This document shows positions 31,381-37,821 of a DNA stretch of 64,000 nt, piece by piece. A program made the position numbers and the translations under genes. This stretch comes from Escherichia phage ECML-134, in sequence record JX128259; one strand, 5' to 3'. Numbering within the stretch: position 1 is the stretch's first letter; the number at the start of each line of letters is the position of its first letter. Below the pieces are notes generated by a model that saw only the letters and a list, made by a program, of their open reading frames with translations, searched no databases and was not told the DNA's origin.

Positions 31381-31835
31381 TAAAAGAGGCTGTTCATTAT
31401 TCGGTAAAGTGAAGGACCCATCACATATTGCCACTGAGTACGAGGAATAAGAGCAAAAGCGTCCATCTCTGGAATCATAACGCCATCTTTATTTTCAAAA
31501 TAAGACTTGCAGCGGCAATTTCTAAACATCTCATGCTCTACTGGAATCGTATAATAAAATAACTGTAGGTCTTTATTACTAGAATATTTAAATACACCTA
31601 GGTCTTCTAGAAGGTCTGGATTATAATTGCTAAAACCAGTCTCTTCTAAACATTCTCTTCGTGCTGCATCTAATGCGCTTAAATCAGAATTTTCTACACG
31701 ACCTTTTGGAATATCCCAACGATGTGCCATCGTTCCAGGCTTACGAGAACCAGTAACCCGACCCATAAATAAATCTTTATCTTCTGTCATAAAGATAATA
31801 CCAGCTGATAGTGTTTTCATTTTAATTTCCTGCAT
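31380..31835 (-). CDS. nudE: Nudix hydrolase NudE
   Basis: Nudix box GRVENSDLSALDAARRECLEETG; 151 aa; start may instead be the ATGA-coupled Met at 31820. Confidence 0.8.
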
Positions 31836-32305
31836 TCAGTGATAAAGTTATTTAAATTTTGAGCATATTTCTTTTCATCAAAAATCTTTTGCTGTCTGCG
31901 TAAACGCCATGGCATTTCAATGAACATGCGCCATATTCCTGATAATACTGCTGCTGTAAAAATATTAACAAGTATAGTTAAAAGAACCCAATCTCCTATT
32001 CTGTCCATTGGATTTTTTATAAAAAAGTAAAATACGAACGATGATATAGGAAGACTAATGATATACCACAGAAGAACCTTCTTATCTGTGAACCAATCAG
32101 CATTCGTTAACTTAGCGCGACCATTTTGAATACACACGAATTTATCATCTGTTACAGTAAATGGCTTAGTTACTTGATATCCCATTCTAAACTCCCTAAT
32201 TAATCGTTTCTTTGTATCTTCGGAACAACCATTCCAGTCAACTCTATCAACTGAAATGCCATCATCCCCATCATCTAAATCATACCAGCGAGTTTTTAAA
32301 ATCAT
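31817..32305 (-). CDS. Hypothetical membrane protein
   Basis: 162 aa; two hydrophobic helices; C-terminal FITECRKLK. Confidence 0.5.
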   Translation of the reverse strand: MILKTRWYDLDDGDDGISVDRVDWNGCSEDTKKRLIREFRMGYQVTKPFTVTDDKFVCIQNGRAKLTNADWFTDKKVLLWYIISLPISSFVFYFFIKNPMDRIGDWVLLTILVNIFTAAVLSGIWRMFIEMPWRLRRQQKIFDEKKYAQNLNNFITECRKLK

Positions 32306-32664
32306 TTAATTTTCCTGCAATCACTCACAAACTCTTTCATTGCTTCATTTTCAATATAAGAAATGTAGCTATTATATTCTTTTAATTGTATTTTGTAATC
32401 CTTTTTTCTTTGCCAATTTATTTTAAAATTATCATAATGAAAATATAAAATGATACCAAAGAATGAAAACAATGAAATAATTTTAGTATAACAAAGCTCA
32501 CTCCAAACTTCTATTATATCTACTGTACCACTGATTTTTAAAATAAAACAGTCAATTAATAGTCCAATAAGACTACCTGTAAGAGCTGCAGCCAACGCCA
32601 CAGCAAAAATTAAAAATGACTCAGGAAGCGAATATTTGACTTTATTTAGTTTTGGCTTTTGCAT
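32302..32664 (-). CDS. Hypothetical membrane protein
   Basis: 120 aa; hydrophobic helices; C-terminal FVSDCRKIK. Confidence 0.5.
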   Translation of the reverse strand: MQKPKLNKVKYSLPESFLIFAVALAAALTGSLIGLLIDCFILKISGTVDIIEVWSELCYTKIISLFSFFGIILYFHYDNFKINWQRKKDYKIQLKEYNSYISYIENEAMKEFVSDCRKIK

Positions 32665-33059
32665 CGTGATTCCTTAACAAATTTCATAATTTCATTAAAT
32701 TCATACTCAGCAAGTTTAATCTGGTGTTCCTTTTTAATGTTTTTGCACTGTGCTTTCCAATCACGTACGCGTTTACGATAATGTCTTCCTTGATACCAGT
32801 ATCCTACCCAATTTACGGGTACTAATAAAAGTGGAACTATTAATGGAAGAATTAGCATTAACACAAGTATTTCGCCAGAATCAATATCAGTCATAACATC
32901 TAAAACACCTCCAATAATCAATAGAATTACAAATGATATGAGTATAACAGGACCTATTAACACATCAGTAGAAATTATCTGACGCTTTAATTCATACTTC
33001 AACGGTTTACTTGGAAGGTATAGTGATGGTTTTGACATATTCTCTACATTCCTTAACAA
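32646..33059 (-). CDS. Hypothetical membrane protein
   Basis: 137 aa; hydrophobic helices; C-terminal KFVKESRCKSQN. Confidence 0.5.
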   Translation of the reverse strand: MLRNVENMSKPSLYLPSKPLKYELKRQIISTDVLIGPVILISFVILLIIGGVLDVMTDIDSGEILVLMLILPLIVPLLLVPVNWVGYWYQGRHYRKRVRDWKAQCKNIKKEHQIKLAEYEFNEIMKFVKESRCKSQN

Positions 33060-33615
33060 ATTTTTCTAGTAATAAATCACTTTCAAAATTAGGATTTTCC
33101 ACTAATTTATCAAAAAGATCATCAACAATAGTTAAGATATTCTTTTTACTAAGAATACGTTTATTTTCATGCTTCGTTTCAGAATCAACTATAAGAGTAA
33201 AGAAATATTTCTTTCCCTGAAATTTTACAGTAGTATCAATATAAAATAAATTTGACTTTTGTAAATTACGTTTAAACCATGCGTCACTTAAACTATAAAC
33301 ACCGAGATAATCAAAATCGTCGTTTAAATAACAAACTGTCCATTCAGGAGAAATGAAATCAGTAAATTCAACATCAAAATCGCATGTCAATGAATAAATT
33401 GATTCAATACTGTTAATAAGTATTCCAGGACGTATTAAAGACTTTTTACCTCTGGAAAATCTTCCAGAAAGACTTTCATCAGTTTCATATGAAGAACCCC
33501 AATAATAATTACGTCCTTCTGCCATACGTTTAAGAGCATTTAGCAATTGGTCTGGAACATCAACCTGTCTTTGGAACTCTTCAAACATTGAATTGAAATC
33601 ACTTTGCATTTTCAT
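33007..33615 (-). CDS. Hypothetical protein
   Basis: 202 aa; C-terminal KFVKECREYVKT. Confidence 0.5.
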   Translation of the reverse strand: MKMQSDFNSMFEEFQRQVDVPDQLLNALKRMAEGRNYYWGSSYETDESLSGRFSRGKKSLIRPGILINSIESIYSLTCDFDVEFTDFISPEWTVCYLNDDFDYLGVYSLSDAWFKRNLQKSNLFYIDTTVKFQGKKYFFTLIVDSETKHENKRILSKKNILTIVDDLFDKLVENPNFESDLLLEKFVKECREYVKTITIPSK

Positions 33616-33656
33616 TCCTATTTACTCCAAGTAATAGGGGCCGAAGCCCCTTATCA

Positions 33657-34250
33657 TTATTTCAGAGAATTAATGTATTCCTGAACATCGGCAGAGGTAG
33701 TTTCAACCCCAGAAATATTACCATTAAAGGTTTCAACTCGAGCAAGAGTATCTTCAATATCAACCTTAGTCAGCGCTGCAATTTCAACTACATCATCGGC
33801 AGTACTAATTCCAAGGGCATTCGCTGCACGAGTTTCACGGATATATTCCAATTTAACTGCAAGTTCTTGGCGAGCATCATCTAACTCAACTACTTTCTTA
33901 GCGATTTCAATTCGCATTTCAGCATAACCATCAGCTTTAGTAGTCAGCTGTTCAGCTGTTCGACGATATAGCAAACCGAGTTTAGCATGCATTGTTACAT
34001 CTTGACCTTCGGAAAGAAGCTTGCGAATTTCACGCTCTTTTGATTCAGCCTGTTTATTCTTTTCAACAATAAGTTCACGAATACGTTTTTCTTCATTAAT
34101 AGATTTAACAGAAGCAGTTTTTAGGTCTTTAATTTTATCAAGCAGTTTTGCTGCTGCGACAGTATACTGTTCTTCAACAGATAGATTTTTAGCCATAGCA
34201 GAACCAAGTTTAGTGCGAATAAACTCAACAATTTTCTTCAGTGTGTTCAT
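33657..34250 (-). CDS. PspA/IM30-like coiled-coil protein (tentative)
   Basis: 197 aa, all-helical composition; local matches to E. coli PspA as recalled (R-x-AAN block, LARVETF vs MARFESF). Confidence 0.45.
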
Positions 34251-34357
34251 AGTATTTCCTTAGGTTGATTAAGATTTAAAATCCGTGAGAGTATTAGTAT
34301 TATACTCTATCTTCAAGTTATGGGCTCATAATATCTCAATCATGAGCCCGTGTAAAC

Positions 34358-34861: not shown

Positions 34862-35425
34862 TTATTTACCTAGTTTAGTTATTATAGCTTCTGCAGCAGC
34901 TTTTAGCTTAGATGCAGTGTTAATACGATTTTTAATTTCAGTATACGCATCGCCAAGAACATCAAGGCTATCAGAATAAACACTTACACTATTGCGTTCG
35001 CTATTTGAAATAGAACCTTTAGTTTTACGATCAAAATCGGTGTACACGTCTTGAAGATCGCGGGCTGCCTTCTTTGCATCATCCAATGCATCAAGAGCTT
35101 TATTCAAAGCATTGACATATTTTTTAGTGTCAAACATATTCTTAGAAATTTTAACAGGTACACGTTCAGGAGTAGCTAATGCAGATTTAGGAACCTGAGC
35201 GCCAGATGCCAATTTCTTAGAAATTTTGAAAAATGCTTTATTAAAACTATTTTCTTGGCTCATCGTAAAAGAACTGTTATCGATGTTATACATTTCAATA
35301 GCTTTAGCTTTCCACTTAAGAAAATCGCCGCGGTCTTTTGGGTCCAAGTGGAAGAATACTTTAGTAAGATCTGCTTCAGATGGTAATTTTGCTGCTTCGG
35401 TTAAAAATTCTGCATAGGTTTTCAT
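34862..35425 (-). CDS. Internal-protein-like capsid-targeted protein
   Basis: N-terminal MKTYAEFLTEA; 187 aa; terminator hairpin downstream. Confidence 0.55.
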   Translation of the reverse strand: MKTYAEFLTEAAKLPSEADLTKVFFHLDPKDRGDFLKWKAKAIEMYNIDNSSFTMSQENSFNKAFFKISKKLASGAQVPKSALATPERVPVKISKNMFDTKKYVNALNKALDALDDAKKAARDLQDVYTDFDRKTKGSISNSERNSVSVYSDSLDVLGDAYTEIKNRINTASKLKAAAEAIITKLGK

Positions 35426-35550: not shown

Positions 35551-36024
35551 TTATTTGATTTGTTTAGCAGACCAAATGCGGTCTTTAATAATTTTTTGGA
35601 TGTCTTCAACATACTCAAGAGAGTGAGCATGTGGGTTATCTTTGAAACTATAAGCACGAGCTAGCTTTTGACCTTCGGTTTTGATTACTAAAAGCTCTTT
35701 AAGGATAGCTTCATATTTAGCGATAATTCCTTTAACGATATTTTTTTCTTGTGCAGCTTTAGGATCTGCTTTAGGAGCAGGTTTACCCGAAGCCTTTGCA
35801 AAAGCAGCGCCAGTAGCAACTAGACTTTTCCAGGCCATACTAACCGCATTTCCTGTAAATCCTTCTGCTTTCATGTCACGAGCAAATTGGAATCGCGATT
35901 CGTCAGAAGCATCTTTATAAGAATATTTACCCGCTGCAATGGCTGCTTTTGCGACAGCTTGAATTTCGGTGCTAGATGCTTCATTTAACACCGCTTCATT
36001 TAAAAATTGAGTATATGATTTCAT
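35551..36024 (-). CDS. Internal-protein-like capsid-targeted protein
   Basis: N-terminal MKSYTQFLNEA; 157 aa; late-promoter motif and terminator upstream. Confidence 0.55.
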   Translation of the reverse strand: MKSYTQFLNEAVLNEASSTEIQAVAKAAIAAGKYSYKDASDESRFQFARDMKAEGFTGNAVSMAWKSLVATGAAFAKASGKPAPKADPKAAQEKNIVKGIIAKYEAILKELLVIKTEGQKLARAYSFKDNPHAHSLEYVEDIQKIIKDRIWSAKQIK

Positions 36025-36064
36025 CTTATTTCCTGTTTTAATTCGTGGATTTAATATACTACTA

Positions 36065-36072
36065 TATTTATA
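36065..36072 (-). promoter_or_regulatory. Late promoter motif upstream of internal-protein-like gene
   Basis: Reverse-strand TATAAATA about 40 nt upstream of start at 36024. Confidence 0.5.
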
Positions 36073-36079
36073 CCAAAAA

Positions 36080-36102
36080 GCCCCAACCTTTCGGTCGGGG
36101 CT
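36080..36102 (-). terminator. Intrinsic terminator closing the tRNA/stable-RNA unit
   Basis: Reverse strand hairpin GCCCCGACC-gaaa-GGTTGGGGC followed by TTTTT; near-duplicate of 35519-35541. Confidence 0.55.
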
Positions 36103-36150
36103 AAGCCTTGCGGCAACCTTGTCGGGGTTCCACCTGCTAAGGCAAGTGTT

Positions 36151-36245
36151 TGTACGAAACGCCGGGATTCGAACCCGGTTATTAAGTAGTTGACGCTACT
36201 CAATATTTTTAAAAGGCCATATCTCGACCATATCCGAACGTTCCG
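36151..36245 (-). ncRNA. tRNA-like stable RNA candidate (non-canonical; possibly a T4 RNA C/D analogue)
   Basis: Reverse strand has a canonical T-arm CCGGGTTCGAATCCCGG and a 7-bp acceptor-like helix CGGAACG/CGTTTCG, but no standard D or anticodon arm. Confidence 0.3.
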
Positions 36246-36249
36246 TCAA

Positions 36250-36418
36250 AAACGCTACTCGGCTTATGGCAAAGATATTTCCTCGAATCGATAATTCGGT
36301 GCGCCGTTTCTGCTGTGATATAAGGGGGCATTAACAAAACATAAAGATTTATTAATGCCAGTCCTTAAACAGGGAACATCAGTCCGACGACTTGCCGGTA
36401 GCGACCCGGCTTCTTGTC
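36250..36418 (-). ncRNA. Possible second structured stable RNA between tRNA-Arg and the terminator
   Basis: No ORF; hairpins cgaatcgataattcg and gccggtagcgacccggc; co-transcribed position. Confidence 0.15.
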
Positions 36419-36494
36419 TGGTCGAGGCAGTAGGGATCGAACCTACGACCCAGGACTTAGAAGGTCCTTGCTCTTCCTTCTGAGCTATGCCTCG
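36419..36494 (-). tRNA. tRNA-Arg (anticodon UCU)
   Basis: Manual fold of reverse strand: acceptor CGAGGCA/TGCCTCG, D-stem GCTC/GAGC, anticodon stem AGGAC/GTCCT with loop CTTCTAA, T-arm GTAGG-TTCGATC-CCTAC, encoded CCA. Confidence 0.8.
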
Positions 36495-36498
36495 TATT

Positions 36499-36573
36499 TG
36501 GCGGACGTGATAGGATTCGAACCTATAACCAATCGCTTAACAGGCGATCGCTCTGCCATTGAGCTACACATCC
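36499..36573 (-). tRNA. tRNA-Asn (anticodon GUU)
   Basis: Manual fold: acceptor GGATGTG/CACGTCC, anticodon stem ATCGC/GCGAT with loop CTGTTAA, T-loop GGTTCGAATCC, encoded CCA. Confidence 0.75.
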
Positions 36574-36577
36574 AAAT

Positions 36578-36664
36578 TGGTGGGGAGTGGTGGAGTCGAA
36601 CCACCCGAGTCGCAATGACAATGGATTTACAGTCCACACCGCTACCTCTACGGGATAACTCCCC
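36578..36664 (-). tRNA. tRNA-Tyr (anticodon GUA), class II with long variable arm
   Basis: Manual fold: acceptor GGGGAGT/ACTCCCC, anticodon stem GTGGA/TCCAT with loop CTGTAAA, T-arm GGTGG-TTCGACT-CCACC, 87 nt, encoded CCA. Confidence 0.7.
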
Positions 36665-36673
36665 AAATTAATT

Positions 36674-36748
36674 TGGTGGCCCTGGGTGGAATTGAACCAC
36701 CATCTGGCGATTATGAGTCGCTTGCTTGAACCTTCCAGCTACAGGGCC
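36674..36748 (-). tRNA. tRNA-Ile/Met (anticodon CAU)
   Basis: Manual fold: acceptor GGCCCTG/CAGGGCC, anticodon loop CTCATAA, T-loop GGTTCAATTCC; one nt from tRNA-Thr (Thr-Ile dimer as in T4). Confidence 0.75.
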
Positions 36749-36749
36749 T

Positions 36750-36825
36750 TGGTGCTGATTGACGGAATCGAACCGCCGACCTTCTCATTACAAGTGAGTT
36801 GCTCTACCTACTGAGCTAAATCAGC
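36750..36825 (-). tRNA. tRNA-Thr (anticodon UGU)
   Basis: Manual fold: acceptor GCTGATT/AATCAGC, D-arm AGCTCAGTAGGTAGAGC, anticodon loop CTTGTAA, T-loop GGTTCGATTCC, encoded CCA. Confidence 0.8.
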
Positions 36826-36830
36826 AAAAC

Positions 36831-36920
36831 TGGCGGAGGCGATAGGATTTGAACCTATGAGTCGCCGGAGCGACTTCCGGTTTTCAAGACCGGTGCATTA
36901 AACCACTCTGCCACGCCTCC
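36831..36920 (-). tRNA. tRNA-Ser (anticodon UGA), class II
   Basis: Manual fold: acceptor GGAGGCG/CGCCTCC, anticodon stem CCGGT/ACCGG with loop CTTGAAA, long variable arm, 90 nt, encoded CCA. Confidence 0.8.
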
Positions 36921-36926
36921 AAATAT

Positions 36927-37535
36927 TTATATATTGTTAATTTGATTTAGAATTCTTTTTGCTTGAGTATGACTTACGCCAATATGCTTAGCATATTTAG
37001 ATAATTCACCACGTTTAGAAAAATCATATAATTTAGAAATTTCTATTCTTCTTTTTCTTTCATCCGCAGAAACTTTTGCTTCGTTTGCTTTTGCTATTTT
37101 ACGTTTAGCTTCTTGAGAATGAGTTTTACCAGCAAAGCCATTCTTCATTAATCCATTTGAAGACCATCCTTTTAATTTTCCGTTAGAATGTGCCTTTTTA
37201 ACACCCAATGAAATTAATTCGCGTTGCTGGTCTGTCATAGGATAATTATTTATATGATCCCATCCACCTTCACCGCCAAGTTTTAAATTATACACATCTG
37301 GTCTATTTAAAAACTCTTCTGTAACAATATTTTTCTCGGCTTTAAGCATAGATTCTTTATCATCAAAATACTCTAATATTTCTTTAGAAAAATTTTCTAT
37401 GCCATACTTATCTTGGGCTCTTTTTAATAATTTACCAGAACCCATATATCCATCATCTAAATTTTCGGTAGAATGCACACCAATATAAATTTTATTATTA
37501 ATTTTATTTGTTATTTTATAAAGATAAAAATGCAT
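36927..37535 (-). CDS. segB: GIY-YIG homing endonuclease SegB-like, embedded in the tRNA cluster
   Basis: GIY-YIG motifs FYLYKITNKINNKIYIGVH...YMGSG near the N-terminus; start MHFYLYK after aggga RBS; between tRNA-Gly and tRNA-Ser. Confidence 0.8.
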   Translation of the reverse strand: MHFYLYKITNKINNKIYIGVHSTENLDDGYMGSGKLLKRAQDKYGIENFSKEILEYFDDKESMLKAEKNIVTEEFLNRPDVYNLKLGGEGGWDHINNYPMTDQQRELISLGVKKAHSNGKLKGWSSNGLMKNGFAGKTHSQEAKRKIAKANEAKVSADERKRRIEISKLYDFSKRGELSKYAKHIGVSHTQAKRILNQINNI

Positions 37536-37581
37536 ATCAGTCCCTAATAAAGAACTGAGCGTCTCACGACGAGTCATAAAT

Positions 37582-37655
<74 letters not shown>

Positions 37656-37660
37656 AAATT

Positions 37661-37747
37661 TGGTGCGAGAAGTGGGACTCGAACCCACAAGGAAATCATT
37701 CCGCAGCATTTTAAGTGCTGTGCCTTTACCAATTTGACCATTCTCGC
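37661..37747 (-). tRNA. tRNA-Leu (anticodon UAA), class II
   Basis: Manual fold: acceptor GCGAGAA/TTCTCGC, anticodon stem CAGCA/TGCTG with loop CTTAAAA, long variable arm, 87 nt, encoded CCA. Confidence 0.8.
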
Positions 37748-37748
37748 G

Positions 37749-37821
37749 CTGGGAATAAAGGACTCGAACCTTTGCATCCTGGAATCAAAATCCAGTGCCT
37801 TACCAACTTGGCTAATTCCCA
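37749..37821 (-). tRNA. tRNA-Gln (anticodon UUG), CCA not encoded; two nt from tRNA-Leu (Gln-Leu dimer)
   Basis: Manual fold: acceptor TGGGAAT/ATTCCCA, anticodon stem CTGGA/TCCAG with loop TTTTGAT, T-loop GGTTCGAGTCC. Confidence 0.75.

Follow-up and report, generated by a model that had tools for sequence, protein, structure and literature searches.

Escherichia phage ECML-134 (sequence record JX128259) carries, on the minus strand of the 64,000-nt stretch of DNA analyzed here (the window), an open reading frame (ORF) of 197 amino acids (aa) for which a preliminary description, made from the sequence alone, had proposed a resemblance to the E. coli membrane-protecting protein PspA. The question raised by this locus is whether the resemblance reflects common descent and, if so, what a lytic phage would do with such a protein. 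We found that the ORF is as described (33657..34250, including the stop codon; minus strand, as are all the features of e.6 and of e.5 to e.2 given below), running from ATG to stop behind a Shine-Dalgarno sequence, AAGGA, located 6 nt 5′ of the ATG (34257..34261), and that it is gene e.6 of the T-even phages. Specifically, its DNA is 100% identical to that of Escherichia phage vB_EcoM_SCS4, 99% to that of T2 and 98% to that of T4; the T-even counterparts are annotated as "e.6, conserved hypothetical protein," and the identical protein is recorded as "hypothetical protein" for ECML-134. The product matched phrog_1203 ("unknown function") with an E-value of 1.8e-87 (residues 1–197 on profile positions 1–199 of 200), and this family occurs in 1,105 of 50,697 phage records, mainly Straboviridae (by organism name). 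The surrounding window is a T-even segment, with a T4-type lysozyme gene e, nudE, e.2 to e.7, nine tRNA genes and an ORF for a putative GIY-YIG endonuclease. As set out below, sequence comparisons indicate that e.6 is very probably homologous to the PspA/IM30 branch (Vipp1, LiaH) of the ESCRT-III superfamily, from which it has strongly diverged.

Gene e.6 and the PspA/IM30 family

Used as a single query against Pfam, NCBIfam and the PDB sequences, e.6 gave no useful match. A single BLASTP comparison with E. coli PspA, the sequence of which was verified (278 bits against 4WHE and 100% identity to E. coli PspA clusters), yielded a colinear alignment of e.6 residues 38–183 with PspA residues 38–179 (24% identity; E = 0.036), with LARVETF of e.6 paired with MARFESF of PspA. 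The local matches to PspA put forward in the preliminary description, including this pair of motifs, are thus real, and the motif pair recurs in the hhalign alignment described below; by themselves, however, they are weak and not significant.

A word-index search with e.6 returned 49 relatives, none below 48% identity and all of them phage proteins of ~200 aa. Thirty of these were built into a profile of the T-even-type subfamily (A1), which produced six sub-threshold matches among PDB sequences, including three Vipp1 entries (E-values of about 1 to 2; aligned over residues 4–142 to 4–144), with LptE as the best match (E = 0.2). When 1.84 billion representative sequences were scanned with A1 using HMMER, 45 proteins were returned, all from phages and about 200 aa in length, and bacterial PspA was absent at E ≤ 1e-3. 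The same scan yielded distant full-length relatives, P0066 (E = 1.5e-21) and P0068 (E = 7.5e-20), which connect e.6 to PspA.

We found that PF04012 (PspA_IM30) was matched by 5 of 43 e.6-family members and that two of these five, P0066 (35.1 bits) and P0068 (39.0 bits), scored above the gathering threshold of 33.9 bits, with protein residues 6–146 aligned to profile positions 2–143. A precomputed Pfam table likewise assigns PF04012 to P0068. Proteins similar to P0068 (77–85% identity) were found in Ackermannviridae, e.g., in Kuttervirus SJ3 and FEC14. On the e.6 side, tblastn with P0068 reached the annotated e.6 genes of RB43 (1e-18) and 44RR2.8t (2e-9) as well as vB_SdyM_006, a Shigella phage of ~166 kb that carries e.6 (2e-13), and BLASTP against a small database aligned e.6 with SJ3 ORF51 over 194 residues (24% identity; E = 2.6e-12). 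The Ackermannviridae members of phrog_1203 (SeF3a Gp_125 and SJ3 ORF51) form one protein family with e.6 over the full length, differing from it in that they are nearer to the PspA consensus and pass the Pfam threshold. As a separate observation, the RB43 gene annotated as e.6 in NC_007023.1 (L006 4001–4447) is given as 97 aa, and the tblastn match begins further upstream (query residues 52–197); a second RB43 record matches over residues 6–200. The two records together point to NC_007023.1 having either a wrongly placed start or a frameshift.

For profile–profile comparisons, we used, in addition to A1, a mixed e.6-family alignment (A2), an alignment of distant members only (A4) and a PspA/Vipp1 alignment (A3). 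The last is shallow (effective number of sequences, 1.6) and comprises seven enterobacterial PspAs and one Vipp1 fragment, because the word-index search with PspA gave only PspAs that are at least 86% identical. A1 and A4 were matched by hhalign with a probability of 100% (E = 1.8e-48; 200 columns), A4 and A3 with 92% (145 columns), and A2 and A3 with 91% (168 columns); the last alignment places e.6 residues 1–176 on PspA residues 1–171 and pairs LARVETFN with MARFESFE. Among PDB sequences searched with the A2 and A4 profiles, Vipp1 and PspA accounted for eight of the top nine matches (E-values from 1.3e-5 to 1.6e-3; residues 1–147), with a prefoldin subunit ranking fifth, and solved Vipp1 structures were matched at 1.3e-5 to 6e-5 with alignments starting from residue 1. 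The Pfam and PDB profile matches end at about residue 147, and hhalign extends to PspA residue 171. Profile matches to Vipp1 and PspA at this level (1e-5 to 6e-5), hhalign probabilities of 91–92% and two relatives that pass PF04012 bear out the PspA/IM30 identity proposed in the preliminary description, and the kinship of e.6 with PspA, as far as sequence comparison goes, holds as one that is visible only through distant relatives.

Because coiled coils invite spurious matches, A2 was also set against 42 controls, namely alignments that had been reversed and PspA alignments of which 7-column blocks had been shuffled. The real A2–A3 comparison scored 44 to 47 (44.1 in the control run), compared with 18.0 and 19.5 for the reversed alignments and 23.4 for the best of 40 shuffles. 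These values bear directly on the explanation that e.6, as a coiled-coil or BAR-like helical protein, is unrelated to PspA and resembles it through composition or convergence. Such an origin appears very improbable to us: the real score far exceeds those of the reversed and shuffled controls, family members pass the Pfam threshold, the alignments begin at residue 1 on both sides and remain colinear through the hairpin turn, and the same alignment was reproduced by HMMER, hhalign, BLASTP and Foldseek. In addition, no BAR family rose above threshold in any sequence search, and the likeness of e.6 to BAR, F-BAR and I-BAR proteins, to which it showed no sequence similarity in any search, is one of generic long-helix geometry.

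Predicted fold of the e.6 protein

The helical product expected from the sequence was recovered in the AlphaFold2 model, which is nearly all helix (residues 2–22, 25–80, 86–145, 157–160, 165–175 and 186–196), with a predicted local distance difference test (pLDDT) score of 76 overall and above 90 in the hairpin. The modeled architecture consists of an N-terminal helix (alpha0) and a helical hairpin with arms of 56 and 60 residues, and it therefore includes the long alpha1–alpha2/3 hairpin, with a turn near residues 80–85, that is a feature of PspA and ESCRT-III proteins.

Residues 2–22 (34185..34247), which align with residues 1–22 of PspA and Vipp1, form a predicted amphipathic cationic helix and the putative counterpart of alpha0. 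The segment from residue 2 to residue 19 has a hydrophobic moment of 0.45 and a net charge of +3, similar to PspA (hydrophobic moment, 0.42) and Vipp1 (0.57), and thus agrees with the N-terminal amphipathic segment noted earlier; a moment of 0.45 was reached by 6% of shuffles, and the pLDDT of the helix is below 50. Arm 1 of the hairpin (alpha1; residues 25–80; 34011..34178; pLDDT of 83 to 95) contains I51-NEEKR-56, which pairs with IAEEKR of Vipp1 at equal positions in the HMMER alignments. The predicted turn, EGQDV (residues 81–85; 33996..34010), is aligned with the PspA/Vipp1 turn at about residues 80–84 and leads into arm 2 (residues 86–145; 33816..33995), in which alpha2 and alpha3 are fused into one long helix. 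Arm 2 opens with an invariant block that hhalign aligns with the LAR(A/E)AL block of PspA and Vipp1, and K90, L91, L94 and R96 are invariant columns of the family alignment. The remaining residues (146–197; 33660..33815) make up a short C-terminal part with two short helices, one (165–175) containing LARVETF with the invariant T174 and F175 and the other (186–196) containing the conserved Y192, S195, L196 and K197. The pLDDT is below 50 for residues 151–162 and 82 to 88 for the last 20 residues, and the two helices possibly represent a shortened alpha4 and alpha5.

Foldseek searches of the PDB with the e.6 model revealed Vipp1 or PspA in all of the top eight positions (probability of 1.00), followed by the archaeal ESCRT-III protein CdvB2. 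In BFVD, family members and one unnamed 222-aa protein ranked first; next came a protein annotated in a phage as "PspA/IM30 family protein" and the Snf7 of a giant virus. The preliminary description had named, as grounds for giving up the PspA assignment, the lack of a profile match together with an unrelated fold; what we found are profile matches and an alpha0-plus-hairpin model with Vipp1 and PspA at the head of the Foldseek results.

Compared with E. coli PspA and PF04012, e.6 is alike in length (197 vs. 222 aa), in the order of its elements (alpha0, alpha1, a turn at about residue 82 and a long alpha2/3) and in its colinear alignment from residue 1 to about residue 171, with alpha2 starting as AKLGL in e.6 and as ARAAL in PspA. 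It differs in its low identity (~24%) and in an alpha4/alpha5 region that is about half as long. The best profile and Foldseek matches are Vipp1/IM30 of Synechocystis (sll0617; PDB 7O3W, 8QFV and 9EOM) and Vipp1 of Nostoc (6ZVR), which share with e.6 the EEKR block, identical and at equal positions. Vipp1 has an extra C-terminal helix, which e.6 lacks, and forms thylakoid-associated rings. The TM-scores of the e.6 model against the solved Vipp1 structures are only ~0.45 to 0.54, as these structures show the protein in open conformations taken from polymers. The next-best structural matches belong to ESCRT-III proper (Snf7/CHMP and archaeal CdvB/CdvB2), namely CdvB2 filaments in the PDB and Megaviridae Snf7 in BFVD; the hairpin-based fold is the same, but there is no sequence-level signal linking these proteins to e.6, and neither a Vps4-type ATPase nor a MIM motif was identified.

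Downstream genes and a shared C-terminal peptide

The preliminary description had placed e.6 just downstream of four small membrane proteins. The direction of transcription puts e.6 upstream of these genes, e.5 to e.2, and the membrane assignment stands for three of the four: e.4, e.3 and e.2 each have two hydrophobic segments, and e.5 has none. Specifically, e.5 (33007..33615; 202 aa) is predicted to be soluble, with a maximum Kyte-Doolittle 19-residue mean of 0.97, has no relative in Pfam or PDB and carries the C-terminal motif FVKECR. Next to it, e.4 (32646..33038; 130 aa from ATG; phrog_2604), annotated as a "predicted membrane protein" in T2, has two predicted transmembrane segments and a cytoplasmic tail ending in FVKESRCKSQN. 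Two transmembrane segments are also predicted for e.3 (32302..32664; 120 aa), the tail of which ends in FVSDCRKIK, and for e.2 (31817..32305; 162 aa), in which they follow a soluble N-terminal domain and precede a tail ending in FITECRKLK. A C-terminal F[IV]xxC[RK] motif is therefore common to e.5, e.3 and e.2, and the tail of e.4 is a variant of it. Across all six frames of the window, the motif has five matches, three of which are the C termini of e.5, e.3 and e.2; the stretches that encode it overlap the start or the ribosome-binding site of the following gene. Between e.6 and e.5, 6 nt past the e.6 stop codon, lies the hairpin GGGGC-UUCG-GCCCC (33637..33650), which a terminator-like scan calls on the other strand.

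Next, we consider other phages. In seven of the eight Straboviridae genera examined (Tequatrovirus, Dhakavirus, Jiaodavirus, Winklervirus, Pseudotevenvirus as represented by phage Taquito, Biquartavirus and Ishigurovirus), the gene directly 3′ of e.6 encodes a soluble protein of 178 to 316 aa with the motif near its C terminus; in another Pseudotevenvirus record, that of RB43, the motif-bearing e.5-like gene is the second gene after e.6. In Dhakavirus, Winklervirus and Jiaodavirus, there follows a two-transmembrane protein that ends in the motif, as the variant FVKEVRRK in Jiaodavirus. The stretches with tail-motif genes at these other phage loci are L005 4630–5418, L006 4780–5397, L007 3132–4078, L008 3144–4332, L009 3124–4074, L010 3146–4433 and L012 1307–2186. 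The soluble neighbors in KP179 and CHI14 (and, weakly, in Aeromonas phage 65.2) match phrog_2607 or phrog_13418. Judged by their sequences, the soluble neighbors checked are diverged relatives of e.5; none of them had a Pfam match.

In comparison, F[IV]xxC[RK] was not found at the two Ackermannviridae loci examined, and the gene that follows the SJ3 homologue, unlike that following e.6, encodes a protein whose only transmembrane segment is N-terminal. BLASTP revealed no homology of e.7 or e.5 to the genes flanking the Kuttervirus homologue, indicating that the module does not extend to Ackermannviridae. The other genes that flank e.6 vary among lineages, from lysozyme in the T-evens to nrdD/nrdH in RB43 and 44RR and DNA ligase in Kuttervirus, which marks the e.6–e.5 pair as the conserved unit. 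A link of e.6 to the lysis genes was considered and rejected, as e.6 adjoins the lysozyme gene e in the T-evens only.

We propose e.5 and the two-transmembrane protein e.4 as partners of e.6. The arrangement is similar to that of PspB/PspC in E. coli and of LiaH-LiaI and PspA-YdjG/H/I in Bacillus, in which a PspA-type gene stands beside small integral membrane proteins with cytoplasmic tails, and these known systems use such partners to anchor and control the PspA-type polymer. No homology of e.2 to e.5 to PspB/C, LiaI or YdjG/H was detectable (no Pfam matches). The E. coli Psp system also differs in its setting: pspF, pspB and pspC are absent from the vicinity of e.6, which belongs to a lytic phage and is expressed early, and the neighbors found instead (e.7, e.5, e.4, e.3, e.2, nudE and e) have no Pfam match, so that the Psp operon context is lacking. 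Such a context is not a defining feature of the wider IM30 family. The role of YdjG/H as partners of Bacillus PspA has been reported (10.1101/2023.09.29.560134). As far as our searches show, the combination of e.6, e.5 and a two-transmembrane protein with a common C-terminal peptide is not described in the literature found, and we regard it as the most interesting lead from this locus.

The wider window holds further features of the T-even segment. Between e.7 and the tRNA cluster lie two minus-strand ORFs, 34862..35425 (187 aa, starting with MKTYAEFLTEA) and 35551..36024 (157 aa, starting with MKSYTQFLNEA), the starts of which, we assume, resemble the capsid-targeting N termini of T4 internal head proteins; at this position, T4 has e.8. 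The nine tRNA genes (36419..37821; minus strand) form two blocks (Arg, Asn, Tyr, Met, Thr and Ser, then Gly, Leu and Gln) that are split by a 216-aa ORF (36927..37577) with the N terminus YLYKITNKINNKIYIGVHS, which we take to be a GIY-YIG homing endonuclease of the SegB type. No convincing ORF is present in the ~350 nt at 36051..36418, where T4 has rnaC and rnaD.

Expression, proposed role and competing explanations

In a T4 multi-omics data set, e.6 was classed as an early RNA and a middle protein (PMC9697503 supplement), which indicates that the protein is made. This class agrees with the assignment of the ORF to the early region in the preliminary description, as does a candidate sigma70-type, T4-early-like promoter, TTTACA-17-TATTAT, located just upstream of e.6 (34328..34356). 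The candidate was picked by a consensus scan (10 of 12 positions) and is consistent with the early RNA class of T4 e.6. As a separate observation, an 8-bp inverted repeat, GGGCTCAT...ATGAGCCC (34322..34349; minus strand), immediately follows the stop codon of e.7 and overlaps the candidate promoter at its −10 element. This repeat could couple termination or processing of the upstream transcript to use of the e.6 promoter.

The expression class also bears on the names under which e.6 has been recorded. "Host specificity protein" is the name used in UniRef, also for the protein identical to that of ECML-134, and in several GenBank records of e.6 orthologues, and "tail completion protein" appears in one BFVD entry; neither name is supported by the sequence, the expression class or the fold of e.6. 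That e.6 might be a virion or adsorption component, as the first name implies, has nothing but the name in its favor. Against it stand the lack of similarity to any tail or fiber family, the early RNA and middle rather than late protein class, the dispensability of the gene and the PspA-like fold, and we consider this explanation extremely improbable. The name itself was rejected as an apparently propagated annotation without evidence.

In our literature search, T4 e.6 itself was not discussed in any paper found, and a single study turned up on phage PspA. That study, from 2022, used HHpred evidence to describe Gp_125 of Salmonella phage SeF3a (phrog_1203, Kuttervirus) as a homologue of PspA (PMC9409062). 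Since SeF3a Gp_125 and e.6 both belong to phrog_1203, PspA homology at the level of the family has already been published.

On balance, we lean, by a modest degree, toward the view that e.6 is a compact phage-borne member of the PspA/IM30 family that protects the host inner membrane, probably together with its downstream genes. The mechanism that we propose, with membrane binding, polymerization and membrane stabilization as its steps, draws by analogy on the known behavior of PspA, Vipp1 and LiaH, and we would give it roughly even chances. The cationic amphipathic N-terminal helix would attach e.6 to the host inner membrane on its cytoplasmic side, as in PspA and Vipp1, and the protein would polymerize via its long helical hairpin. 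The polymer would then seal or stabilize the stressed membrane and so maintain the proton-motive force, starting in the middle period and lasting until the lysis timed by the phage. The stress would likely come from injection of the genome, from superinfecting phages, and from phage membrane proteins as they insert and the holin as it accumulates. In this process, e.6 would probably work with e.5, e.4, e.3 and e.2; more speculatively, the proteins with the tail motif may recruit or regulate e.6 as PspB/PspC, LiaI and YdjG/YdjH do with their PspA-type partners. A more far-reaching version, which seems possible to us but doubtful, makes e.6 the core of a Psp-like membrane module that is conserved in Straboviridae, with its polymer docked or regulated by the F[IV]xxC[RK] proteins e.5, e.4, e.3 and e.2, much as PspA is by PspB/C, LiaH by LiaI or ESCRT-III by its adaptors. 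If true, the inner membrane would be remodeled or protected on the schedule of the phage, e.g., so that the proton-motive force holds during lysis inhibition or superinfection.

Several results weigh against e.6 being a PspA-type membrane protector. With e.6 alone as the query, hmmscan did not match Pfam PspA_IM30 even at E ≤ 10, and the PDB sequence search gave no match. When A1 alone was compared with A3, hhalign probabilities were 12% and 8% in two runs, with a score of 25.5 that is barely above the controls. The Foldseek E-values of the e.6 model are only 1e-3 to 1e-2, the C-terminal 50 residues are shorter than alpha4/alpha5 of PspA and modeled partly at low confidence, and the pLDDT of residues 1–19 is below 50. 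[quoted passage not shown] Dispensability and the absence of a RexAB phenotype argue against a strong or unique role for e.6.

The same data bear on a role as a specific counter-defense against abortive-infection systems that depolarize the membrane, which has been proposed for SeF3a Gp_125 of phrog_1203 (PMC9409062). An accessory gene that is dispensable in the laboratory yet kept in >1,000 phage genomes shows a typical anti-defense pattern. However, insertions in T4 e.6 caused no fitness loss with RexAB and insertions in rIIA and rIIB were lost, a result obtained in an rII+ background in which redundancy is possible, and we judge a dedicated counter-defense role to be unlikely.

A further explanation holds that e.6 is a mimic of PspA that interferes with the PspA-based systems of the host instead of protecting the membrane, whether by binding PspF or PspB/C, by poisoning PspA polymers or by acting as a decoy for immune components on a PspA platform. 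Interference with stress signaling was raised in the preliminary description as well, and the best conserved part of e.6 is the hairpin, the region in which E. coli PspA has its regulatory and assembly surfaces. PspA can also serve immunity, as the cyclase of a type II cyclic oligonucleotide-based antiphage signaling system (CBASS) in Bacillus is conjugated to host PspA for storage (10.1101/2023.09.29.560134). Nevertheless, with ~24% identity to E. coli PspA and few shared surface residues, e.6 would be a poor mimic. T4 shuts off host transcription early, so little would be gained by blocking the sigma54/PspF response. Moreover, e.6 is not among the CBASS-challenge hits given in the main text of the HIDEN-SEQ report (10.1101/2025.11.20.689424). 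Taken together, these points make mimicry quite unlikely in our view, and protection of the host inner membrane by a diverged PspA/IM30 protein is the role that we prefer for e.6.

Roughly half of the genes of T4, the reference lytic phage, lack an assigned role. With its placement in the PspA/Vipp1/ESCRT-III superfamily, e.6, a gene kept in more than 1,000 sequenced phages, acquires a concrete, testable function. The homology is not a first, given the 2022 Kuttervirus paper on the same PHROG and the annotated PspA/IM30 genes of other phages, and the advance is incremental unless the module hypothesis holds. For the biology of the large lytic phages, the finding suggests that they may bring their own membrane-maintenance machinery and would not rely on the host Psp response that they shut off. 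It bears on how the membrane of T-even-infected cells stays energized when lysis inhibition lasts for hours and superinfection recurs, and on how holin triggering stays on schedule, and the conserved neighbors with their common C-terminal tail would offer an entry point to the partners of a minimal ESCRT-III-like system.

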